64,000 bases of DNA, taken from NCBI GenBank assembly GCA_964016885.1, contig OZ024751.1:34100001-34164000 (forward strand). Reading direction: 5' to 3'. Position numbers and translations under genes: made by a program. Positions 3,623-64,000 of this stretch are shown here, one piece after another (the first letter of the stretch is position 1; every line of letters starts with the position of its first letter). The notes under the pieces were generated by a model, which was not told the origin of the DNA, searched no databases, and worked only from the letters and a program-made list of their open reading frames with translations. Origin of the DNA: Eledone cirrhosa. Taxonomy: Eukaryota.

Positions 3623-3627
<5 letters not shown>

Positions 3628-3819
3628 AAAAAGTTCAAGATCCCGACGGCAGAGCTCATGCCGTTTCGACGGCTATTTCTGGACCAGAAATAGCCGTCGA
3701 AACGGCTTGAGCTCTGCCGTCGGGGTCTTGAACTTTTTCCTATCACCCACTCTACTACCCTAAGTATTGAGTACTCTGGTGCGTTATGGTCCATCTGGTT
3801 CCTTACCACACTTCCTTCG

Positions 3820-3821
<2 letters not shown>
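3623..3821 (+). mobile_element. Fold-back palindromic element, family B copy 1 (Penelope-like end) in (TA)n
   Basis: 60-bp inverted arms 3623-3682 / 3684-3743 with a 1-nt centre, ~78-bp unpaired tail, TA runs on both sides. Homologous to 34993-35189 and 63908-63968. Confidence 0.8.
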
Positions 3822-5410: not shown

Positions 5411-5771
5411 CTCCCATACCTGCTATACACTGAAAGCCTTACAATTAGATAGGTAAGTAGTGAGAACTATTCTACCTTAATCCTTTAGCAAAGATTCAGC
5501 AGAGATTATCTAAAACCAGCTTTGTTAATTCAAATGTTTACATTATCTTTAATAGCGGACATATCCTTGTGATTATGGGCAGTATCAGGTAAGGCACTTT
5601 CAGTTTTAACGTGCCACAGTCATCGTGTGGTTTGCTGATGAAGTTTCATGTGGTACAGAGATAAAAGATTCTGTTAATATATTCACAATGTACTAGCGAG
5701 GAACATATCAACAGTCTCCTGTAACTTCTACCATTCAACGAGATCTAAGGTTCCATGTACAACATTAATAA

Positions 5772-5958
5772 ATAATTGTTTCTACTTTTGGCACAAGGCC
5801 AGCAATTACCCAGTGTATTACTGGTACTTTATTTTATCGACCCTGTAAGGATGAAAGGCAAAGTTAACCTAGGCGGGATTTGAACTCAGATTGGAAAGGG
5901 ACGTAACTCTATGCGTCAAAGCATGGCGTCCGACCCTTTACCGATACTGCCAATTCAC
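5772..5958 (-). mobile_element. tRNA-derived SINE family 1
   Basis: Minus strand: A-box-like TGGCAGTATCGGTA, B-box GAGTTCAAATCC, core GGTTAACTTTGCCTTTCATCCTTAC..GGTCGATAAAATAAAGTACCAG, tail GCTGGCCTTGTGCCAAAAGTAGAAAC. Confidence 0.85.
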
Positions 5959-13597: not shown

Positions 13598-14049
13598 TAT
13601 CTGTCTGTCTGTGTGTCTGTGTGTCTGTGTGTCTCTCTGTGTATGTCTGTAAGTAAACGTAAGTATTCATTCTATATGCAAACATTGTCCAATACGTTGA
13701 CTATAACTATTCAAACAAGATGGGATTTGTTTGTTGAAATGGCAGGCGATAATTTTAAGCGACGCAGAAGAAAAACAAGAAAACTGTAAAAATGTCAGAC
13801 AAATAAAGGAACTGGAAACAAAAAGAAATTTCAAATGTTTTTACATTGAAAAAATATATAAGGAAATATATACATAAATGTTGCCATATCTACATATTTA
13901 ACACATATTATACACATACATTAACATTTATATATATATATATATATATATAGTGGTGGAACACTAGAAGGTAATATCCGTAGTGGTAGAGCACTCAGTT
14001 CATGGGACGAGTTAGGTAGAAGTGGTTACACAACAGTTAATTCACCATA

Positions 14050-14089
14050 CCGAGAACAATTGTTTCACCTTAGCGGATCCTCAGCTCGG
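14050..14089 (-). ncRNA. Minimal type-I hammerhead ribozyme motif (mirror copy)
   Basis: Exact reverse complement of 14700-14739. Confidence 0.7.
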
Positions 14090-14699
14090 AATGGGCATGG
14101 TTATAGGAACAGGAAGGACAACCGTACGAACGCGCATGCGCAGAAACCCGGTCACTTCACACAGGCAATACTAGAATGCGTGTGAGAGGTGTAAGGGAGA
14201 TAACTGCGAAAGTCCGAAAAGTTTTTAGTTGAAAAATAAAATTACAAAGAATCAGTCCGGAGCCTTGTAGTTATGCAATAGGTGTTTGGCGACGTGTGGA
14301 CAACGTGTGAAAAATCATTTCTCGTGTTTAGGCAATCACTATAGCGTAATCTCTTTAGAATAGTTATTCGTTCGTCAATACATTAACCACACGCCGGATG
14401 GGTTATGTATTGACGAACGAATAACTATTCTAAAGAGATTACGCAATAGTGATTGCCTAAACACGAGAAATGAATTTTTCACACGTTGTCCACACGTCGC
14501 CAAACACCTATTGCATAACTACAAGGCTCCGGACTGATTCTTTGTAATTTTATTTTTCAACTAAAAACTTTTCGAACTTTCGCAGTTATCTCCCTTACAC
14601 CTCTCGCTCGCATTCTAGTATTGCCTGTGTGAAGTGACCGGGTTTCTGCGCATGCGCGTTCGTACGGTTGCGCTTCCTGTTCCTATAACCATGTCCATT

Positions 14700-14739
14700 C
14701 CGAGCTGAGGATCCGCTAAGGTGAAACAATTGTTCTCGG
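14700..14739 (+). ncRNA. Minimal type-I hammerhead ribozyme motif
   Basis: CCGAG-CTGAGGA-tCCgctaaGGt-GAAAC-aatt-GT-T-CTCGG: perfect 5-bp stem I, canonical core, weak stem II, palindromic loop III, GUU triplet. Confidence 0.7.
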
Positions 14740-14766
14740 TATGCTGAACTAACTGTTGTGTAACCA

Positions 14767-14843
<77 letters not shown>

Positions 14844-16490: not shown

Positions 16491-16953
16491 TTGAGATCGG
16501 TGTGGAAGTCGGACCTTCGTAAAGACCTGAAAATCCGCCTCTTCATTGCTGTACGGGTCTGAGACTTGGACACTGACCAAGAAACTCACTCAGATGGTGG
16601 ATGGGTGCTACACGAGAATGCTGAGGATGGGTCTGAACATTAATCAGTATACACTGAGGATGAAAAACTCAGAGCTGTTTGGGAACCTCCCAAAAGTCAG
16701 CTCAAAAGTGACACAGAGGAGACTGAGGTTAGCTGGACATGCTCACAGACATCCAGAGTTGACATTGCACTCAGTGTTCCTGTGGGAGCCCCTACATGGA
16801 CATACTGGAAGAGGAAGACCAAGGTTAACGTATGTTGATGCCCTAAGGACAGACACTGGTCTGTTGGAGACGCAGGATATGGCAGCGATAATGAGGGACA
16901 GAAACCGCTGGAGAGAACTCGTCCATGGATCTCGGGAATTTTACCCGCCCTAG
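16491..16953 (+). mobile_element. 5'-truncated RTE-clade LINE (C-terminal part of RT ORF) inserted in (TA)n
   Basis: LRSVWKSDLRKDLKIRLF upstream, then LLYGSETWTLTK...GCYTRMLR...RRLRLAGH...LWEP...GRGRPRLTYVD...RDRNRWR, typical of the RTE C-terminus. TA runs on both sides. Confidence 0.88.
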
Positions 16954-26798: not shown

Positions 26799-29700
26799 CT
26801 ACAGTCTGATGTAGAGTGAAGGCCCATTCACACGAGCCATTCTCGCCACTTTCACCCATCTTTCATAAAAACAGCTGGGGTGCAGCACCTCTCTCTCCAT
26901 CCTGATCCTTCTTCCGAAATGATATCGGAAGAAACGGACCAGTTGTTGGCCAGAGAAAAAGGTGTCTGACCTCAGTCCTTTCAGACACGTCCACCATTCA
27001 ATCTCTTTCACCATGGCTATTACGCACAGAAACACCGCCTCTCCTTCGTTTTTGAAGAGGGGAGGCGGCTTGGTCGTTACAATAGACTCGGTGGTCAACC
27101 GGATCGGTCCCACCCGTGACAGCAGTCCTTCAACATAGCCCCACAGATCGGCAATGCCCGAGCAGTGTACCAATGCGTGTGCAACGGTTTCCTCGTCGCA
27201 CACGCATCTGGGACAGATCTTTTTCGAGGGGTCCCTACCCGGGTGACCGTGTCTGTAGAGCCTTTCTCGAACGGGCAGAGCCCCTCGGTAGTACTGCCAG
27301 GCCAGGGACCTCTGGAAGTTATCCATAGGTCCCGGGCTGAATGTCCTACCGAACAGGTTGGCCAGTTCGTTTTCCTCCATGTCTAGGGCTTCTCCGAGGG
27401 CGTCGTCACACCTGCTAACCACCAGCCCTCTATAGAATGACGAGGTGGATTCTCCACTGACAGCAGGGTCCGCCTGCCAGATAGACGTGAGCGCCTGGGC
27501 ACACTCGGTGTGCCAGGCGCCCAGTTTTCTCGGTCTTTGCTTGACCCAGGATTGCAGCTCGGTGAGCGAGACGAGTCTGGGAAAGGCTCGCCTCACAAAC
27601 GGGGCCTACATCGGTTGACCAGTGAGGAATACCTGGAGGTGCCGTAGCCTTAATGCGTGTTTGCGCATCATCAGCCACGGCATCCCCAGCCCTCCTTTCG
27701 AAGGGTGTTGACAGCAGATGGATCTCCTCATCATAGGAGCCCGTTTCTTCCAAAGGAATTGGAAGAGTGCGCGCTCCATTTTGGCGAGCGTTTCCCTTGG
27801 GCAAGGCACGACGGTCAGGCGGTAGTAGATGACGGACGCTATATAAGTGTTCGCCACCTCCGCCCGACCTTTCAGGGACAGTTTGCACTCGGCTCACTTC
27901 TGGGTCAGTGCAAACACCCTGTTCGCTACCTCACCCCAGTTCTTCTCCACCTGGAGGTCTGGTCCAAACCAGACCCCGAGCAACTTCACCGGGCCCTCCG
28001 TCCAGCGCCCGACGACGCCATCGGAGGGCATCGATCTGCCCCTCCACGTGCCGAGTTGCAGACCGATCGACTTGTCCCGGTTCAGCTTAGCCCCTGTAAA
28101 CCTTTCGTACTCCTCCAGTAAGGTGCCGATCGCCCCGATTTCCGAGGCCGTCGACACCATTACTGTTACGTCATCGGCGTAGGCCGACACCGCTTTCTGC
28201 AATCCCGGTTCCAACGGGATGCCCTGTAACAACTCCAACTTCCGCAGCAGTGGCTCTAGAGTCATTACATACAGAAGGGAGGAGAGATAGAGCACCCTTG
28301 TCGGATGGACCGCGTGATTTAGAACGGCTCCGAGAGGTAGCCGTTCACCTTGACCCTAGAGCAGATGAGGCTGCTGTGCATGGCAGTGATCCAGCCCCTG
28401 AAAACGGGCCCGAAGCCTGCCGCCGCTAGCACCGCATCCAGGTCACCATGGTCGACCCTATCGAACGCCTTAGATTGAGCCAAGTTGATCAGGGCCCCAC
28501 CAAAGCCGGGTTCGTTCCCAACCCTCTCTAGGATGTATCGCATGAGGTGGAGGTTGTCGTGGATGGACCTGGACGGGATAGCACATGTCTGCGCATCTCC
28601 CACCAGGTTGCCCACGACAAGCGCCATCATCTTTGCTAGCACCTTGGCCAAAATCTGTAACTCTGTATTTAGCAGAGTTATGGGCCTGAATTATTTATAT
28701 CGTCCCCCTTGTTCTCGTCCTTCCTCACTAGCGTGACTACACCCTTGGTCACAGCACAGGGAATTCTCCCGTTCTGTTGCTAGTTGCAGTAGACCACCTC
28801 GAGGAGATCGGGGAACAAGTCCGGCATAGCTAGATATAGTTCGTATGGAAGACCATCGAGACCCGGGGATTTGCGTTTGCAGCATTGGCTCAGCACGTCC
28901 CCTATCTCAGCGGCTGAAATCGGCTCCTCGCAGGACTTCGCCTCCCTGTCCGAGAGACGCGGCAGGCCGTCGAGGTATGAACCGAAGTCCACTTCCCCAA
29001 CCGGTTCCCCGCCCCTTCCGAACAATCTGGCAAAGTGCTTTTGAAAAGCCTCGCACATCTGCTTAGGTTCAAGGATCACCCGTCCATCCTGGTCTCGCAA
29101 TGACCGGATAGTGGATCTGCTCCCTCTTTTGGCTTCTGTCACGCGGGCCCAGCTAACAGCTTTGGTCTCCTCGTTTCCCAGAGCACGTATTTTGCTTCGG
29201 ACGATGCAGCCTTCGTATTTCGCATCGAAGAACTGGCTCAGGGTCGTTCTCGACGCTAGCACTCTGGCCACGTCGCCGCTTCTAATTGCCTCTTCTACAC
29301 TATCTACCAACTCCCTTTCCTTCCTATTTCTATTTGAGGCTAACTCCTTACTAAATTCTATAGAGACTACTCTAATCTCTCTCTTGAGAGATCCCCACCA
29401 CCTGCTGTTGACGATGGCGCTCGTCAACCACTCCTTAACTAAAGTGCTAATCTGGTCCCTGTAAGCCTTACTTGCCGGTAAGGACAAGTTGAGCTTCCAG
29501 TAACCGGGTCCCTGTCTATGCTTTCTGTGAAGGTTGACTATGCAGGTCCCTAACTTGTGGTCTGAATAGCCAACCATGAGCATTTTTGGACAACTTAAAA
29601 AGTCCTTATCCTTATTTCTAACTAAGAACCTATCTAGGTACGACCTAGATGATCCGCTGCGGTTTGCCCAAGTCCAGGTTGGCGCATTCGGAAAATCTAG

Positions 29701-30237
29701 TCGATATCTATCGGCCAGGTCAAATCGACCGATTAACCCCTTGAGGATGTTACAACCCTCTCTATCGAGACAGGCCCTTGCGTAGTCCTAACGTGCATCT
29801 AGGATACCATTCCAGTCCCCCACTAATAGCAAGGAGCGGGACGTCCCTAGAAAAGTCTCCAGACGATGGGAGAAGTCCGGCCGCGTTGACCCGAAAGGGC
29901 CGTAGACGGCTACCAGCCTAAACGCTCCGCCTTCACCACTGCCAAGGTCCAGAACCACTAGTCCACCCTCCGGGTCCAAATGTACCGTCTGTGTTGCGAG
30001 ACCCAGATGTTTTTGCAGCAGAACGACACCCCCACCCCCACCTCCGGGCTGACAGAGAGATGCGTGCATCTCAAAGACATCAAAGGTGGGGGCCAGCTGT
30101 CGCACGTTGCTGATCCGGGCCTCGCAAATAACCATCACATCTATACGTTGTGACCTGAGGTCATTTAGAAGCATTGCTTGCTTCCAAGTTGAGCCCAGGC
30201 CACGCGCATTTAGACAGCCTACTCTTAGTATAGCCAT
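26799..30237 (-). pseudogene. Tx1/L1 ORF2 (AP endonuclease + reverse transcriptase + zinc finger), broken by several stops and frameshifts
   Basis: APE motifs LNARGL, ICEA, VAVYGP, VGDWN, SDH; GPGYWKLN; KSPGLDGLPYELY; QSKAFDRVDH; SAYADD; VKLLGVWF; KGGLGMP; C-terminal CPRC...ETVAHALVHC. Confidence 0.93.
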
Positions 30238-30438
30238 TTTGGTGGTGAAGAGAAAAGGCACTTACCTCTCTGCGTCCCGGGTATCGGGCTGCACAATTTC
30301 CATGAGGGTGGAGATGGGTTGTTGGGTGGGGTGGTGGTTTGTGGAAGTGTAGGGGCATCAGTGTGTTGTGTGGTTGGGGTGTTTGGAGTTGTGTGGGTGT
30401 TTGGGGAGGGGGTGGGGAAATGTTTTAGGAGGACGCGG

Positions 30439-31939
30439 TTAATGGGCCCGACGCAGGGGGGGGGGGGGCACGTCCTCTTTAAAGTTGTTTTTTAGTGTTT
30501 TATATGTGTCCTCTGGGGCCTTAATCATTTTGAGGTGGGGGAAATCCCCTGCCTGGGTGAAGTTAGGCCCTTGGGTTTTTACTAAATTGTTGTTGTATAC
30601 AATGTTTAGCAGTTTTTTATTTCTTTTTTTTATGTATGTGTATGCATGTTTTTGTTTTTGTGTGGTGTTTTTTGTTTGCTGTTGTGTGCTCTTTTGTGTT
30701 GGTGTCTGTGTTATGTTTTGGGGAGGGGTTGTTTTCATTTGTGTGTCTGAGGTGTGTTTTCTTTTTTTTCTTTTGATTGTGTGGAAGTGCTCCTCCTCGT
30801 CTGACGACGAACGAGGGTCATCTTCCGCGTTGGAGGGGAGGGGTAGATTTTCGGGTTGTGTTTGCGGTGCGGGTGTTTTGGAAATTGTTTTTTTTTTAGT
30901 GGGAGGGATGGGTTGGACAGTGTTTTGTTTTGGTTTGAGCTGTGGTTGTTGTTTTTGTAGTGGTGGTTGTGGTGATTGTGTTGGTTGTGCAGGCAGGATT
31001 GGGGTTTTCTTTTTAAGTTGAGGACAGACAGCCCTCAGGTGACCTCTGGCTCCACAGAGGTAGCACGAGGGCCGCCTACCCTCAACGGTAATGTTGATAA
31101 CAGTTTGATCATCCAGTATGACGCGTTCAGGAATATGGGCGATCCTTTCGGGCCTCATTTGAACTACAAGTTCGAGGCCCGTTCCACTGAACGCGTCACC
31201 CGATGCCTTTCCCATGGATATTAGTGTGTCATCGTCTAGGAATCCTGTCAATACGCACCATATGTCCATAATCGGAAGGATGGTGTGAATTTTTATTTTT
31301 TGTGTCCTTCTACCCATGTACGTAGGGTAGAAGGTGGATGTGATTGGTTTTATTGACAATTTCGCTGCCGTGTCCCTGTCCTTCATGAGAATGGATAGAC
31401 TCCCGTAGAGTCTATCCTTCTGAATGAATATGATGTCTTTCATGACATCTTTTAAAACCAGCTCTATCTCACTCTGTGATGGTTGAGCTGGTTTTTTTGC
31501 TTTTGTTTGAGACTGTCCTAAACATGACAATGTTTAGGAGTCTCTGGCTTTTTAGTTCGGGGGGGGGGAGGATCGACAATGATCCATTTTCCCTGTACAC
31601 TATGTATTTTTTGGCTTTGCTTATATCTACTGGCAGATAGTCGAGGGTTTTCCTTGCAGTCTGGGTGAAGGAGACCTTTTCCTTGTTCGTGTTGCTGTTG
31701 TAGTTGGTGGTGTTGTTGTTGTTATCATTGTTGTTGGTGTTGTTGTTTTTGTTGTCTTTATTGTTGCTGTTGTTGTCGTTATTGTTGTTGTTTTCGGTTT
31801 CTTGTGTAGTTGCGGCTACATCAAGTTGTCGGTCAGCAGGTCGGTCATCTGCTGCTGTGACAGTGGAAGGGGGGGGGGGGAGCTGTGAGTTTAGCTTCCC
31901 TTTTCTTTCTTTGAATGTTGGTGAAGATGCTTCAGCCAT
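30439..31939 (-). pseudogene. Tx1-type ORF1 (gag-like nucleic-acid-binding protein), one frameshift near 31500
   Basis: ORFs 31469-31948 and 30439-31530 overlap in different frames. Zinc knuckle VEGRRPSCYLCGARGHLRAVC (CX2CX4HX4C), Asn-rich N-terminus, Pro/Gln/Lys-rich C-terminus. Confidence 0.85.
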
Positions 31940-32155
31940 TTTTATCAAAGTAGGAAATTTTTCGAAAGATAAAATTTATTTTTTTTCACCACAATTTCGC
32001 CTAAAGGCGTAGAATAATTTGAGAGACTGACCAGATCAAAATTTGACCTGGCAGTCCCTCTACAAAATGGTACAAAAATGAAAGTTTACAGTTTGGAATT
32101 TCTATGGAAATTTAGGCAGAACTTACTCACCAAGTTTTACGCGTGTGTCCATCCC

Positions 32156-34475: not shown

Positions 34476-34537
34476 AAACTAACAGTCGGCGTGACATATG
34501 GATCATTCCACTCCTTGTTATATATATATATATATAT

Positions 34538-34955
34538 AATAATGAAATGACAGGAGGCTGGATTTGTGTAAATCCTTGAAAGGTTTATTATACTATGATC
34601 ATTTCAATGACCGGGTTCCGTATGAATCCGGTGATATCATTCGAAATATAATACGTGAATGTAATAGATAAAATCCATGGGCTGAAAATCGAGGACCCGA
34701 GGGCGACCGCTATTCTGTTCCTTCAACCTCATACGGAACCCGGTCATTGAAATGATCATAGTATAATAAACCTTTCAAGGATTTACACAAATCCAGCCTC
34801 CTGTCATTTCATTATAATATCTAACTCCGTAATAGCACCACCAACTACAAAAACAAAGACGGTTGAACTGCCTTACGTTGAGTACTCTCTATATTATTGC
34901 ATTACGATTGACCATACGGAATAGACCAGCTCTATACAGTGGTGAACCTCAAACC

Positions 34956-34959
<4 letters not shown>
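34538..34959 (+). mobile_element. Inverted-repeat element (88-bp identical arms, 103-bp spacer, ~143-bp tail) in (TA)n
   Basis: 34538-34625 is the exact reverse complement of 34729-34816. The arm contains the hammerhead-like 3' half GAAAT-gatc-AT-A followed by AATAAA. Confidence 0.75.
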
Positions 34960-34992
<33 letters not shown>

Positions 34993-34994
<2 letters not shown>

Positions 34995-35189
34995 CGGAGG
35001 AAATGTGGTAAGGAGCCAGGTGGACCATAACGCACCAAAGTACTCAATACTTAGGGTAGTAGAGTGGGTAATAGGAACGAGTAGGACCCCGACAGCTGAG
35101 CTCAAGCCGTTTCGACGGCTAATTCTAGACTAGAATTAGCCGTCGAAACGGCTTGAGCTCAGCCGTCGGGGTCCTACTCGTTCCTATTA
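34993..35189 (-). mobile_element. Fold-back palindromic element, family B copy 2, in (TA)n
   Basis: Arms 35069-35128 / 35130-35189, tail 34993-35068. Reverse-orientation homologue of 3623-3821. Confidence 0.8.
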
Positions 35190-36519
35190 TATATATATAT
35201 ATATAACAAGGAGTGAAATGATCCATATATCACGCTGACTATTAGTTTTATCTTGCCTTTCTTCAGAGTGAATATTTTGCTATATTTATAATTTATATGA
35301 AATTATGATCGAACTAGATGAGAACCACATATTCATGCCTACTCCCTTATTTCAAAGTAAATTTATAAAACAACTTGGGTATCTTCCCAATATTTTGAGT
35401 TGAACAGTATATCTAGAACAACTCCTATGTTTTACCTTATTATTCATCTATCTCACTTTCTTTCCATCCTTTATACCACACGTCTTTCCTTATGCCAAAT
35501 TGAAAGTAAGTTTCCTATATATGTATGTTAGTGACATTTTAATTTGTACATTTTTTGTGTACTTGGTATATACTGGCTTCTCTTAAGAGAGGGATTAAAA
35601 CAGTTGGTAAAGGTTGAGACACTAAAATGCAACTCAGTATATTTCTCTGTAATTATGTTTGGCACTACACTATTAAAAGTTGACACTTCCCTGTGGGTAA
35701 ACGATTAAATCAGCGGGGTGGACAATACAGTTTGAGTATATAATATTCTTCACTTTGCTAAAATATTCTCAAAGAAATCGATATCTAACTCCTCTTCCAC
35801 GATCCCTTCCTCTTCATTCACAACTTTATTCTATTTCATCAAATGTTGATACCTCACTACCACTTTATGTCCATCATTTTCAGTTGTTCATGAAATTATT
35901 TCGAGTTTATAGTGTATCTCTGGTGGTGATGAACATATATACAGAAATAAATTTTCTCAGAAAGGTTTCTCCTTATACCAAATACATATACTGAGCTTTG
36001 TCCATAATTATTCAATCTAGCTGTGGAATCAGGTTTATGAAGGTATTTTCAATAAATTTATATGGGGATTAAGACGACTGCTTTCGTTTTACTTATGACT
36101 CATGAGGATTTCTTTGACTCTCCTTTCCTAAATACTGAGATAAATGTAAACAATATTGGGTTAAATACAAACCTATTTGTATAATGGAACAAATTTGATG
36201 ACCTATGTTTAGTTTCTAAAGTAACAATACCACGTGCCTCAGAAATATATATACAAACTCTATATTTTCCTTTTATATTTTTATATATTAAATCTCAGGT
36301 GAAGAGACGTTATATCCTTCGCCCAATATTCTTGAACACCAAAGAAAATATCGTCTCTCCACCCGATACTGGCAGCTATGTTCAATGACTGATTGATATC
36401 GAGTACCGCAGTGGTTCACAAAATGTACCACGGTCCTAATAATAGATTTCCTTTGACAAAATGCTTGTTAGCAATTTTCACATCAAAGACCGACATGTCG
36501 TAGGCCTATAGTTGGTAAC

Positions 36520-36665
36520 GACATTTTCCGTGATGGCCCTTTACGGTCTGAGTTCAAATCCCGCCGAGGTTAACTTTGCCTTTCATCTTTACGGGGGTCG
36601 ATAAAATAAAGTACCAGTAATGCACTGGGGTAATTGCTGGCCTTGTGCCAAAAGTAGAAACAGTT
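36520..36665 (+). mobile_element. tRNA-derived SINE family 1
   Basis: CTGAGTTCAAATCCCGCCGAGGTTAACTTTGCCTTTCATC...GGCCTTGTGCCAAAAGTAGAAAC. Confidence 0.85.
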
Positions 36666-37319
36666 ATCATTATTATTGCTATTGTTGATGTCGTTCGTGA
36701 ATTCAACATCTAAATCGTCACTATCATCACCACCAACATCACCATTATATATATAAGAGAGAGAGGGGGAAAGAGAGGGGAGAGGGGGCTGAGAGAGGGG
36801 GGGAGAGAGAGAGGGAGAGACTATTTCCAAACAGAACTAAGAAGAATAAAGAAAGAAAGGAAACACCATAAATCTTTATAAACTTACTGTTCCGTGTTGC
36901 TAGATACTTCTTGATAATTTCATGGTGAAACATAAATTACATATATATGTATGTATATATATGTGTGTGTATATATGTGTGTATATATATATGTGTATAT
37001 ATATATATGTGTGTATATATATATATGTGTGTGTATATATGTGTGTATATATATATATGTGTGTGTATATATGTGTGTATATATATATATATGTGTGTGT
37101 ATGTGTATATATGTGTGTATATATATATATGTGTGTGTGTACATGTGTGTGTGTTTATTGGTTTGGCTTATACTTGTACATGATTCTGATTTAAATTTTA
37201 TTTGCCGATATTAAGCAATGATTTATGTTGTTGTTTTTTATATTACCTTTTTTTACCTCTCGCCCCCCCCCCCCCCATACCCACTTTCTCCCAGTCCTTT
37301 TCTCTCACGCACTGACACA

Positions 37320-45156: not shown

Positions 45157-45238
45157 AATAACTGTAAATACAGTCGGTTACTATAAATAATATTTTCTAA
45201 GCTATCACTTATAGCGATCGACTGTATTTACAGTTATT
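45157..45238. repeat. 30-bp inverted repeat with 22-nt spacer
   Basis: AATAACTGTAAATACAGTCGGTTACTATAA versus TTATAGCGATCGACTGTATTTACAGTTATT; 3 transitions. Confidence 0.8.
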
Positions 45239-46407: not shown

Positions 46408-46510
46408 TAATTGCTTCTACTTTCGGCACAAGGCCAGCAATTATCCCAGTGCATTACTGGTGCTTTATTTTATCGGTCCCGTAAGGATGAAAGGCAAAGT
46501 TTACCTCGCG
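46408..46510 (-). mobile_element. SINE family 1, 5'-truncated
   Basis: GGCACAAGGCCAGCAATT...AAGGATGAAAGGCAAAGTT on the + strand. Confidence 0.8.
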
Positions 46511-54709: not shown

Positions 54710-55156
54710 ATGTTCCCATATTTCATTCGTTAATTTCTTTTTTGCCCTGTCTCCTTCCCCTCCATCTAGCAACCACCCACAGTCCCTCCAGCCACCCCTT
54801 ACTTTACTAATCTATTATCTATTATATATCGGTTGTTTTGCGACGATTGTCAATATCACAACTTCATGATTAGTCACACATCATTGACTTTGGTTCGATT
54901 ATATGCAAGTTTACAACATCACACATACACACACACACATGTATATATATATATATATATATTAGGAGGGTGGTTATACGTGCAAAGTTCTCGCCATATA
55001 TATAAACTCCGCATATCAGATGAGCTGTCGATGCTCAGTCGGTCTCCGGTCATATTATAATTGGACCTTCAGCTGATCGATATTATCACATGTGAATAAA
55101 GTTTATATATGATGCAATCTTGAGACTTTGTTCCTGCTTACTTTTATATGCACTTA

Positions 55157-55277
55157 ATAATTGTTTCTACGTTAGGCACAAGGCCAGCAATTACCCAGTG
55201 TATTACTGGTACTTTATTTTATCGACCCCGTAAGGATGAAAGGCAAAGTTAACCTCGGCGGGATTTGAACTCAGAAT
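55157..55277 (-). mobile_element. SINE family 1, 5'-truncated, with apparent target-site duplication
   Basis: Near-identical to 5772-5890. ATATGCACTTAATAAT occurs on both sides (55146-55161 and 55276-55291). Confidence 0.85.
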
Positions 55278-62211: not shown

Positions 62212-62302
62212 GTGTATATATATATATATACATATATATACATGTGTATGTATATATATATATACATATGTATGTATATATATATATAGATATATGCATG
62301 TG

Positions 62303-62335
<33 letters not shown>
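61799..62335. repeat. Compound (TA)/(TG)/(TATG) array
   Basis: Direct reading. Confidence 0.95.
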
Positions 62336-62338
<3 letters not shown>

Positions 62339-62339
62339 G

Positions 62340-62730
62340 TGACGAAACATAAGTCAATTGCATGAACTCATAATCATTTATTTACTGCTATATATATTTC
62401 GATGACAGCCATTGAATGACTATGACCTCATCAGGCAGTTAGTCAGTTCTTAGATATGCCAGCTCTGTGTTTATAGTTTTGATGGTATCAGAGCCTTGGG
62501 ACATATTGATACCATCAACACTATAAACACAGTGCTGGCATATCTAAGAACTGACTAACTGCCTATTGAGGTCATAGCCATTCAATGGCTATCATCGAAA
62601 TATATATAGCAGTAAATAAAGGATTATGAGTTCATGAAATTGACTTATGTTTCGTCAGTATTATAACTCCAGAACTTATATCTTCGTAGAGTGCTCCCTA
62701 TCCGCATACTGAAGTAGTGGATTTTACCAA

Positions 62731-62734
<4 letters not shown>
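62340..62734. mobile_element. Fold-back palindromic element (151-bp arms, 16-nt spacer, ~76-bp tail) with hammerhead, in (TA)n
   Basis: Arms 62340-62490 / 62507-62657; TA-rich arrays on both sides. Confidence 0.82.
62384..62439 (-). ncRNA. Type-I hammerhead ribozyme motif
   Basis: ACTGC-CTGATGA-G..ATAGTCAT/ATGGCTGT..C-GAAAT-atat-AT-A-GCAGT, then AATAAA. The mirror copy near 62558-62613 has a damaged core (CTATTGA). Confidence 0.78.
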
Positions 62735-62771
<37 letters not shown>

Positions 62772-62824
62772 TGGGAAAGTAAGAAATCGGAGAATAGACC
62801 GTTAAAACATGTGTATTTAAAACA

Positions 62825-62864
62825 GCACCTACGTACGTTTCGCCCAGTTGGGCTTCTCAAGGGC
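62825..62864 (-). ncRNA. Minimal hammerhead motif with U3-A8 variant core
   Basis: GCCC-TTGAGAA-GCCCaactGGGC-GAAAC-gtac-GT-A-GGTGC. Strong stem II, palindromic loop III, short or bulged stem I. Confidence 0.62.
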
Positions 62865-63857
62865 ATAAAAAATCAAAAGTGTTCCTTACATTGCTCGGAA
62901 AGAGTTTTTGGGGTTAAATCCACGTCAAGGTTCATTGCTCGCAAAAATAGCTTGTTTTGATTTTGCAGCAGGTCAAGGGAGGTAACTCTGGCCGGTGTTA
63001 GGGCAGTCTTTCCCGGACAAATTTTTTTTATCTTGGCTGCCCCATTTCCGTGCTTTCTACATTTCTTAGTGGTATCTTTGCTTTAATTTCCCGTATATCA
63101 GTAATTTTTTTTAGGGGGGGGGGGGGGGGGTTCTGAATTAATTTTCCCTATCAAATTTTTCATATACTTCGTACGAGCATTTATGTGGTTTGCACTAGAA
63201 TTTTTGTATCGTAGCGGCACCCTTAGAGATAGTATTAGTATTCATTTTCGGGATTCTGAATTATTATTTCGTATTAGTTTATTTTTTTGCACTGGGTGGT
63301 TGCTGGCCTTGTGCCTAGGGTAGAAACAATTATTTCGTATTAGTCTCGGGACTCTGAATTATTATTTTGTGGTAGTTTCTTTAGTATTTTGGCCCCCCAC
63401 TTGTTGATCTGTCACCGTAAGATATACTCGGTTGATTACTACTAACTCTTAAAATGGTCTCATTATAATTCCGTCCCACCTAGTAAACTTTTCTATAGTT
63501 GAGCAGTACCAGTGAGAGACTTGATGACTGTCGTTAGGGAAAAGTAACCAGAAATTGTTTTTTTTTTTAACCTTTTAACATTCTCGGTATTCTTCTATAT
63601 ATTTACCCCATATTGTTTTACTTATTGTTTCGACTTCCTCCCCCTCCCCCTCCCTAGTATACTTGCTTGACCTCCTACCCTGCTGTAGTTGGCACTATCA
63701 ACGCACGACTGGGTTTCCACCACCCCCTCTCCCTCTTTATTCTACTGGCAGGTTCAGCTACCCCTTCCTTCCACAAATTGCCATGATAGAATTATGTGTC
63801 TCAACAACAAACTTTTGACCAATCCTTGTGACAATCACTTTTACCATATATGGAATT

Positions 63858-63953
63858 AACTCCTGAGAAGCTCGGCTATTCATATACCAGGATAAAAATG
63901 TTCATTTAGTCCAGAATTAGCCGTCGAAACGGCTTGAGCTCAGCCGTCGGGGT
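63858..63953 (+). ncRNA. Full-length hammerhead-like motif of family B (extended stems II and III)
   Basis: ACTC-CTGAGAA-GCT-CGGCTA...TAGCCG-TC-GAAAC-GGCTtgagctcAGCC-GT-C-GGGGT. The core has a C3-A8 mismatch. Confidence 0.55.
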
Positions 63954-64000
63954 GCTACTCGTTCCTATATATATATACACATACATATATATATATATAT

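Follow-up and report, generated by a model that had tools for sequence, protein, structure and literature searches.

A damaged hammerhead motif in an abundant, probably Penelope-like repeat family, with most family 5' ends apparently within its loop II

Family B and its hammerhead motif

The window, that is, the whole 64-kb stretch of DNA analysed, is eukaryotic (~35% GC), rich in microsatellites, and apparently cephalopod-like in repeat content, and it carries three copies of a repeat family designated family B, namely, two palindromic insertions at 3.6 and 35 kb and a one-armed copy at 63.9 kb (Table 1). Evidence on the family was drawn from the window and from four public sequencing runs (of 13 listed), of which X1 (contigs) and X11 (RAD reads) bear one species label and X5 and X8 come from other organisms. 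At 80% likeness 8,363 X1 contigs, 15,014 X11 reads, 22 X5 contigs, and 3 X8 contigs were aligned to positions 63730-63968. Summed contig depth is not equal to copy number, and the loose-end and variant figures given below are those among the entries listed, beside which 180 more loose-end entries and 36 more variant entries exist.

Table 1: Features of family B in the window.
Feature	Position	Strand	Description
Palindromic insertion, 3.6 kb	3623-3821	+	Mirror arm 3623-3682, centre 3683, direct arm 3684-3743, 78-nt tail 3744-3821; (TA)n flanks
Palindromic insertion, 35 kb	34994-35189	-	Tail ~34994-35070, arms 35071-35128 and 35130-35189, centre 35129; (TA)n flanks
Upstream pseudo-LTR / 3'-UTR-like family sequence of the long tailless copy	63730-63857	+	Multi-copy in X1, X11, and X5; in X8 over 63730-63826
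Stem I, 5' strand	63858-63862	+	AACTC here, with ACTC at 63859-63862; pairs with 63949-63953
Hammerhead core, positions 3-9	63863-63869	+	CTGAGAA; C3·A8 mismatch in the 63.9-kb copy
Stem II, 5' strand	63870-63878	+	G10.1, C (A in the better-paired variant), bulged T, CGGCTA; GCT 63870-63872, CGGCTA 63873-63878
TATA-like motif (candidate, putative function)	63877-63885	+	TATTCATAT in the 63.9-kb copy, TATTTAAAT in some family members; overlaps the start of loop II
Loop II	63879-63917	+	39 nt, AT-rich; contains the 5'-end zone of most family copies
Initiator-like TCATTT (candidate transcription start, putative function)	63902-63907	+	A at 63904, where a loose-end pile lies
Fold-point zone, TAG-T-C(C/T)A microhomology	63907-63913	+	Centres at 63910 (two window copies) and 63908 (one X8 contig end)
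Stem II, 3' strand, and GAAA	63918-63929	+	TAGCCG 63918-63923, C11.1 at 63925, GAAA 63926-63929
Stem III and GTC	63929-63948	+	6 bp (63929-63934/63942-63947), 7-nt loop 63935-63941, GTC 63946-63948
Predicted cleavage site	after C63948	+	GTC triplet
Stem I, 3' strand, and tailless element end	63949-63968	+	GGGGT 63949-63953; TTCCTAT, then (TA)n

The order of parts is the same in both palindromic copies: (TA)n, mirror arm, 1-nt centre, direct arm, 78-nt tail, and again (TA)n, which adjoins all three window copies. The head-to-head inverted, 5'-truncated arrangement is thus present in two of the three. The tail is carried by one arm of each palindrome and is absent from the mirror arms and from the 63.9-kb copy; the mirror arms stop at the same TTCCTAT point as this tailless copy, and both tailed and tailless loose ends were found at 63950-63953 in reads and contigs. 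Segment 63907-63968 is 94-95% identical to the 35-kb arms and 86-87% identical to the 3.6-kb arms, in keeping with the original prediction, in which the 63.9-kb copy matched the family B arm up to TTCCTAT and (TA)n and whose quoted motifs were all found in place. Within each palindrome the subfamily-diagnostic letters are the same in the two arms, but they are not the same in the palindromes at 3.6 and 35 kb, which makes it probable that each mirror arose de novo. The parental centre letters of the 3.6-kb palindrome stand on its tailless arm.

Family B is very probably derived from Penelope-like elements (PLE). Inspection by eye of six frames of 62900-63860 gave no open reading frame for a reverse transcriptase or a GIY-YIG endonuclease, and since no reverse-transcriptase frame of family B was found, its Penelope membership rests on anatomy. 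By its anatomy in the window family B fits neither of two other classes. Non-LTR retrozymes are head-to-tail tandems with complete hammerheads, and here three dispersed copies with no tandem in the window were seen; MITEs and other DNA transposons have symmetric TIRs that bound the whole unit, and in family B the tail lies outside one arm, the long copy is one-armed, and the 5' ends are variable.

Segment 63858-63968 carries a type I hammerhead motif, with three helices round the core and open at helix I, in which G10.1-C11.1 (63870/63925), GAAA, and the NUH triplet GTC are all in place. It was confirmed that the upstream ACTC-CTGAGAA-GCT-CGGCTA completes stems I and II, as had been proposed, with one A·G mismatch and one T·G wobble in stem I of the 63.9-kb copy and a C·T mismatch and a single bulged T in its stem II, which has 6 bp plus a G-C pair. 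Stem III, described beforehand as unusually long round GAGCTC, has 6 bp, long for a metazoan PLE, and, as a small correction, the self-complementary GAGCTC is contained in its 7-nt loop. A Watson-Crick 3-8 pair (C3-G8 or U3-A8) is replaced by C3·A8 in the 63.9-kb copy and is present in part of the family. The 5'-half pattern is not a chance match; it occurs once in the window and in none of 200,000 simulated 60-nt flanks. Hits of the hammerhead pattern elsewhere (0 and 1 in viral contigs, 11 in metagenome contigs, and 2 in prokaryotic genomes) were rejected as chance, all 14 loci being GC-rich with only 20-27 nt matched.

For the native 63.9-kb copy the imposed hammerhead fold reached -10.4 kcal/mol versus -24.9 kcal/mol for the MFE fold, and the pair probabilities of stems II and III were 0.06-0.09. 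A hammerhead is not the predicted fold of this copy; one reason is that CGGCT/AGCCG occurs in both stem II and stem III, so that 63918-63923 can pair instead with 63930-63935 in a competing hairpin (63918-63935). In the 3' half alone, this hairpin may be a built-in off state for RNA starting in loop II. The Rfam search gave 0 matches over the whole window at gathering level and 28 matches over 62300-64000 at E<=10, with no hammerhead family among them.

The original prediction had named as its weak point that 63858-63907 might be private to this copy. When checked, 63858-63905 proved to be multi-copy, with 150-260 X11 RAD reads per bin and direction from ~50-57 start places and with a contig coverage of 61-62 in X1 and 2 in X5. 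At 63859 A>C was found in 127/134 and 158/187 X11 reads and in 61 contigs, and at 63861 T>C in 125/133 and 172/184 X11 reads; together the family letters C63859 and C63861 restore a perfect stem I, ACCCC/GGGGT. Similarly, 63871 C>A, which closes stem II, was present in 12% of X1 depth, 7/388 X11 reads, one X5 contig, and one X8 loose end. As the segment is multi-copy and the family letters improve the structure, 63858-63905 is the family's true hammerhead 5' half. A decayed mirror arm was rejected as the source of this upstream segment, since the segment is present in many copies of several species and continues into 130 nt or more of further family sequence. The 5' boundary of the long copy lies at or upstream of 63730, and no second copy or mirror arm of 63730-63857 was found within the window. 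Thus the 63.9-kb copy, with its shared 5' half and single arm, is the longer, unfolded family member that had been supposed, and its sequence, a long tailless end-piece of a very abundant, likely Penelope-like retroelement family, retains both halves of a damaged hammerhead.

The variant 63863 C>T, which gives U3-A8, was found in 25/133 and 41/184 X11 reads (66/317), 35% of X1 depth, and one of the two X5 contigs. Judged by these letters, the intact family core is TTGA(G/T)AA, so that of the two cores proposed beforehand TTGAGAA was retained in this wider form and CTGAGGA was discarded for X1 and X5, where no A>G place was tallied, and less firmly for X11, where three such places exist. U3, the A of stem II, and TATTTAAA seem to occur together in a single X5 variant (depth 26.1), which is taken as the intact form. 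The C3·A8 form of the 63.9-kb copy and of most long copies is probably a poor ribozyme; by analogy, single mutants at G8 and C3 are inactive in the Poseidon hammerhead of Anolis (PMC11167929).

Apparent family 5' ends and fold points in loop II

The depth over 63858-63889 relative to 63922-63945 was 2.6% in X1, 5.3% and 2.4% in the two directions of X11, and 13% in X5, and the step across 63900-63925 corresponded to ratios of 38 (X1), 19 and 42 (X11), and 7.5 (X5), that is, 8- to 42-fold. Loose ends lie at 63904 (40 X1 contigs and 524 X11 reads), 63914 (535 X11 reads), 63915 (989 X11 reads), and 63918 (83 contigs with agreement 0.48 and 1,357 reads with agreement 0.72), spread over several bases. 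The consensus agreement of the flanks at 63904, 63914, and 63915 is 0.34-0.43, which indicates many different flanks and not one diverged subfamily or mirror arm; the 63918 pile, judged by its letters, is partly a subfamily with a variant loop end. Taken together, the depth step and the mixed flanks at 63904-63915 mean that most copies, palindromic or not, seem to begin in the last third of loop II.

The X11 run is a restriction library made with an AATT cutter, which explains its molecule-end peaks and inflates its minus-direction depth step. The peaks at 63779, 63854, 63857, and 63915 coincide with AATT sites and were rejected as element ends, being artefacts, and 816 X11 ends at 63904 were set aside, since AATT could arise there with a flanking A.

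Three fold points were mapped, and all lie within 63908-63910, in agreement with the proposal that the palindrome centre falls inside loop II. Both window palindromes have a 1-nt centre at the equivalent of 63910, 8 nt upstream of the stem II 3' strand, and the 15 loose letters at the end of one X8 contig (a single record, with the loose end at 63909) read as the family arm in reverse complement, folded at 63908. For the 15,014 reads and 8,388 contigs the list of strand-switch joints is empty, which was not accepted as proof that palindromes are rare, since AATT in both arms excises the centre and contigs end just past the hairpin centre.

Palindromes of other families in the window fold ~50 and ~300 nt upstream of their hammerheads, and of four unrelated window elements with the same anatomy at least two fold far from their ribozymes; thus palindrome formation needs no ribozyme helix. 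A ribozyme helix is neither required for the palindrome nor does it place the fold, and the direct tie between ribozyme structure and palindrome formation that had been anticipated was therefore abandoned. The site of the fold is probably set by the 5'-end zone and not by stem II.

A candidate promoter in loop II and a proposed origin of inverted copies

Two promoter-like motifs accompany the 5'-end zone. In some family members the TATA-like TATTTAAA starts at 63877, 27 nt before A63904 and 31 nt before A63908, and so stands 27-31 nt upstream of the candidate starts; the clean TATTTAAA form is a minority in X11, with 63881 C>T in 17/214 and 37/242 reads and 63883 T>A in 42/214 and 78/243 reads. 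Loose ends are present also at 63896, in X1 (10 contigs, agreement 0.96) and in X8. TCAKTY is the initiator consensus, and its match at 63902-63907 is to be read with the brevity and AT-richness of such promoter motifs in mind, since it arises in 4.8% of 100,000 loop shuffles, the figure of 1% for its position having been computed post hoc. A sigma-70 promoter scan gave nothing and, being a bacterial model, is irrelevant to a eukaryote. In rotifer pseudo-LTRs a TATA motif lies 20 bp upstream of an initiator-like motif (PMC3846280), and Penelope of D. virilis is transcribed from its own pseudo-LTR (PMC2377424). That the 5'-end zone of family B marks a transcription start is plausible on these motifs, with a probability that we put slightly below even.

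As the best explanation of the genomic copies, held at somewhat better than even, we suggest that the copied RNA begins in loop II and that run-off cDNA ends are joined head to head. Transcription would start at ~63904-63908 under a promoter of the pseudo-LTR whose TATA-like motif is at 63877, and the resulting RNA would hold only the 3' half of the ribozyme and hence would not self-cleave in cis at this place. The element's reverse transcriptase would prime internally, at the tail or at the tailless site, on nicked (TA)n, and the cDNA would run off the RNA 5' end after ~60-140 nt, yielding a mass of short copies. At its run-off end the cDNA would then be connected head to head, using 1-3 nt of microhomology (TAG-T-CTA); this could occur by self-priming, or the end could encounter another cDNA whose synthesis was primed on the opposite target strand. 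Rarer long copies such as that at 63.9 kb would come from RNA of a downstream pseudo-LTR or from read-through RNA. Cleavage is likely not needed for spreading, because the cut site is read through in all copies seen and C3·A8 is the core of most long ones.

Several of these steps have counterparts in the Anolis Poseidon, for which internal priming in vitro at two adjacent reverse transcriptase starts defines the tail, both target strands are cleaved and extended, and ribozyme mutants insert normally (PMC11167929); the mirror arms and the 63.9-kb copy, all ending at TTCCTAT, match these two starts. Palindromes at head-to-head junctions have been attributed to self-priming (PMC3846280).

For family B the second priming event is slightly favoured over self-priming, since the tailless start is the exact end point of the mirror arms and since the centre letters of the 3.6-kb copy on the tailless arm are not expected from fold-back of a tailed cDNA. 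The argument from the 3.6-kb copy is weakened by the fact that the central base of an inserted palindrome may be inverted later.

Tentatively, and as a reading that we hold to be less probable than its opposite, it may be proposed further that a core promoter is nested in loop II, so that the element transcript carries the 3' half only, read-through and 3'-end transcripts carry the whole motif, and the choice of start site switches the ribozyme on or off; the 60-140-nt stubs and 1-nt-centred palindromes would then be the Penelope equivalent of strong-stop cDNA. If this is true, the RNA 5' end can be read from these stubs and palindromes in the genome, self-priming can be told directly from twin priming, and the constant read-through of the cut site in inserted copies has an explanation in the splitting of the ribozyme by the start site.

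Four other explanations were weighed. It is unlikely that one or a few short non-autonomous masters, truncated or palindromic in loop II by accident, were simply amplified, in which case the common start would carry no information on transcription: non-autonomous PLE derivatives have been reported (bioRxiv 10.64898/2026.07.22.740005), the two window palindromes share a centre, and the C3·A8 subfamily was evidently amplified, but at least three letter-variants of the loop 3' end start in the same zone, another species has a different centre at 63908, and the diagnostic letters agree within palindromes and not between them.

Slightly less probable is that the zone is real and is set by a pause of the reverse transcriptase at a weak loop II hairpin (63890-63912) or by a splice acceptor TTTAG (63905-63909), whose first exon base, 63910, would be the palindrome centre. 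The MFE fold does pair 63890-63896 with 63905-63912, but this hairpin is a short, AU-rich one, reached by the enzyme only after the stronger stem III has been passed. As for splicing, the AG at 63908-63909 is preserved in a diverged subfamily and the intron of D. virilis Penelope ends at hammerhead helix I (PMC4209133), but no shared upstream exon was seen as a high-agreement loose end at 63910 among the entries listed.

The alignment threshold itself raises an objection, since at 80% likeness subfamilies whose 5' half has diverged go unseen there and would look truncated. That the depth step is mostly such an effect, with subfamilies sharing the 3' half and diverged in loops and 5' halves and with fold points clustering only via the TAG-T-CTA microhomology, is improbable. 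The depth drops also after 63953, where subfamilies diverge, and the 63918 loose-end pile shares a proximal motif; against this, the agreement at 63904, 63914, and 63915 is the expectation for unrelated AT-rich flanks, and the X1 group at 63918 loses agreement (0.48) beyond ~10 letters.

Finally, the snap-back of the original prediction, in which cDNA passes the stem II 5' strand and folds back on the stem II complement so that the mirror replaces the ribozyme 5' half, is very improbable. In its favour, the centres do lie inside loop II, a stem II hairpin is possible in the antisense cDNA (about -5 kcal/mol, z -1.8), and self-priming is already proposed for PLE palindromes (PMC3846280). Against it, a 39-nt loop spacer is predicted where both window palindromes and the X8 contig end have 1-nt centres, many copies flanked by mixed sequence and not by a mirror seem to begin in this zone as well, the folds of families A and C are far upstream of complete hammerheads, and the parent subfamily with a fully paired stem II and a tiny loop that the snap-back needs is not among the variants listed.

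Related systems and other elements of the window

Palindromic, tailed, hammerhead-bearing PLE ends, self-priming, and U3-A8 cores are already known; the variant features of family B are the 39-nt loop II, the 6-bp helix III, the 78-nt tail, the widespread C3·A8 core, and the 5' ends inside the ribozyme. With EN+ Penelope-like insertions (Arkhipova et al. 2013, PMC3846280; Craig et al. 2021, PMC8557442) it shares the head-to-head inverted 5'-truncated copy with a junction palindrome, the one-arm tail, the microsatellite target, and the TATA and initiator-like motifs in the pseudo-LTR. It differs from them in its 60-nt arms, in the concentration of 5' ends inside the hammerhead, and in its tail of 78 nt versus 30-40 nt.

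Metazoan PLE hammerheads (Cervera and de la Pena 2014, PMC4209133) likewise are of type I with a 5-bp helix I, G10.1-C11.1, a covariant U3-A8, and a palindromic loop III, and the D. virilis hammerhead has a long helix II with a bulge, as in family B; opposite-strand motif pairs 100-700 bp apart are described in metazoan PLEs in the same paper. Family B is unlike them in its long helix III (6 bp with a 7-nt loop), its 39-nt loop II, its mostly C3·A8 long copies, and the CGGCT/AGCCG shared by stems II and III, which gives the competing hairpin. In the minimal PLE hammerhead of PMC4209133 helix III is absent or of 1-2 bp and an unpaired base stands between positions 9 and 10.1, whereas in family B helix III has 6 bp and G10.1 follows A9 directly, with no extra base between them.

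Poseidon of Anolis carolinensis, PAc (Frangieh et al. 2024, PMC11167929), has in common with family B the two adjacent reverse transcriptase starts (tailed and tailless) and an AT-rich target. For PAc the uncleaved RNA is the template and both strands are cut and extended, whereas the corresponding steps in family B are deduced from genomic copies alone; in that work no transcription start is mapped and inverted arms are left unexplained. Non-LTR retrozymes (Cervera and de la Pena 2020, PMC7229834; Li et al., bioRxiv 10.64898/2026.07.22.740005) share the type I hammerhead, the non-coding character, and the relation to PLE, but they form head-to-tail tandems with complete ribozymes, whereas family B is dispersed, head to head, and mostly without the 5' half. 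For NbRZ1, a retrozyme of plants, transcription from a point upstream of the cut site is implied (PMC12029980). The literature search of main texts gave no paper showing a transcription start inside a PLE hammerhead, or family B itself. According to PMC8557442 and PMC11167929, the origin of PLE head-to-head inverted ends and the role of the hammerheads are open questions. With its abundance, its sharp zone of 5' ends, its two fixed 3' ends, and its diagnostic letters, a family of this kind would make fold-back and twin priming separable from one assembly.

Several other elements of the window have inverted arms or hammerheads. A 756-bp palindrome (96%) at 14017-14772 lies in (TA)n with a spacer of ~10-20 nt and a one-arm tail at ~13952-14016; each arm carries a complete minimal hammerhead (CTGAGGA core, palindromic helix III), and the fold is ~300 nt upstream of the hammerheads. 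The element at 62337-62735 consists of a 324-bp palindrome (62337-62660) with a 16-nt spacer and a ~74-nt tail; it folds ~50 nt upstream of the hammerhead, whose core is CTGATGA in the left arm and mutated in the right, and TATAAA lies ~35 nt upstream of stem I. At 34531-34958 there are 95-bp inverted arms with a 103-nt spacer (34531-34823) and a ~134-nt tail, in (TA)n, and the (TA)n target around this element is duplicated in inverted form at 35188-35251. On the minus strand at ~62820-62865, outside any palindrome, lies another small hammerhead, whose family is unrelated, whose core is TTGAGAA (U3-A8), and whose helix III is palindromic; a decayed 82-bp palindrome (80%) without (TA)n flanks is present at 45157-45238.

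The motif GAGT(A/G)CTC, of which ~1 site would be expected anywhere in the window, has four sites (3769, 13989, 34880, and 62689), all in the tails of four sequence-unrelated elements, and the 35-kb tail contains a one-base variant; the motif is possibly a shared protein-binding or priming signal, to judge from its placement. A 140-aa open frame at 16531-16953, followed by (TA)n and with no Pfam match, presumably resembles the C-terminal end of an RTE-type LINE. On the minus strand, 26799-31975 contains a broken two-ORF LINE (Pfam Exo_endo_phos, RVT_1, and zf-RVT), GC-rich versus the background. A SINE-like dispersed family of ~120-140 bp is present in many copies with 70-97% identity, among others at 5763-5900, 36537-36678, 46408-46508, 55156-55275, and 63288-63335.
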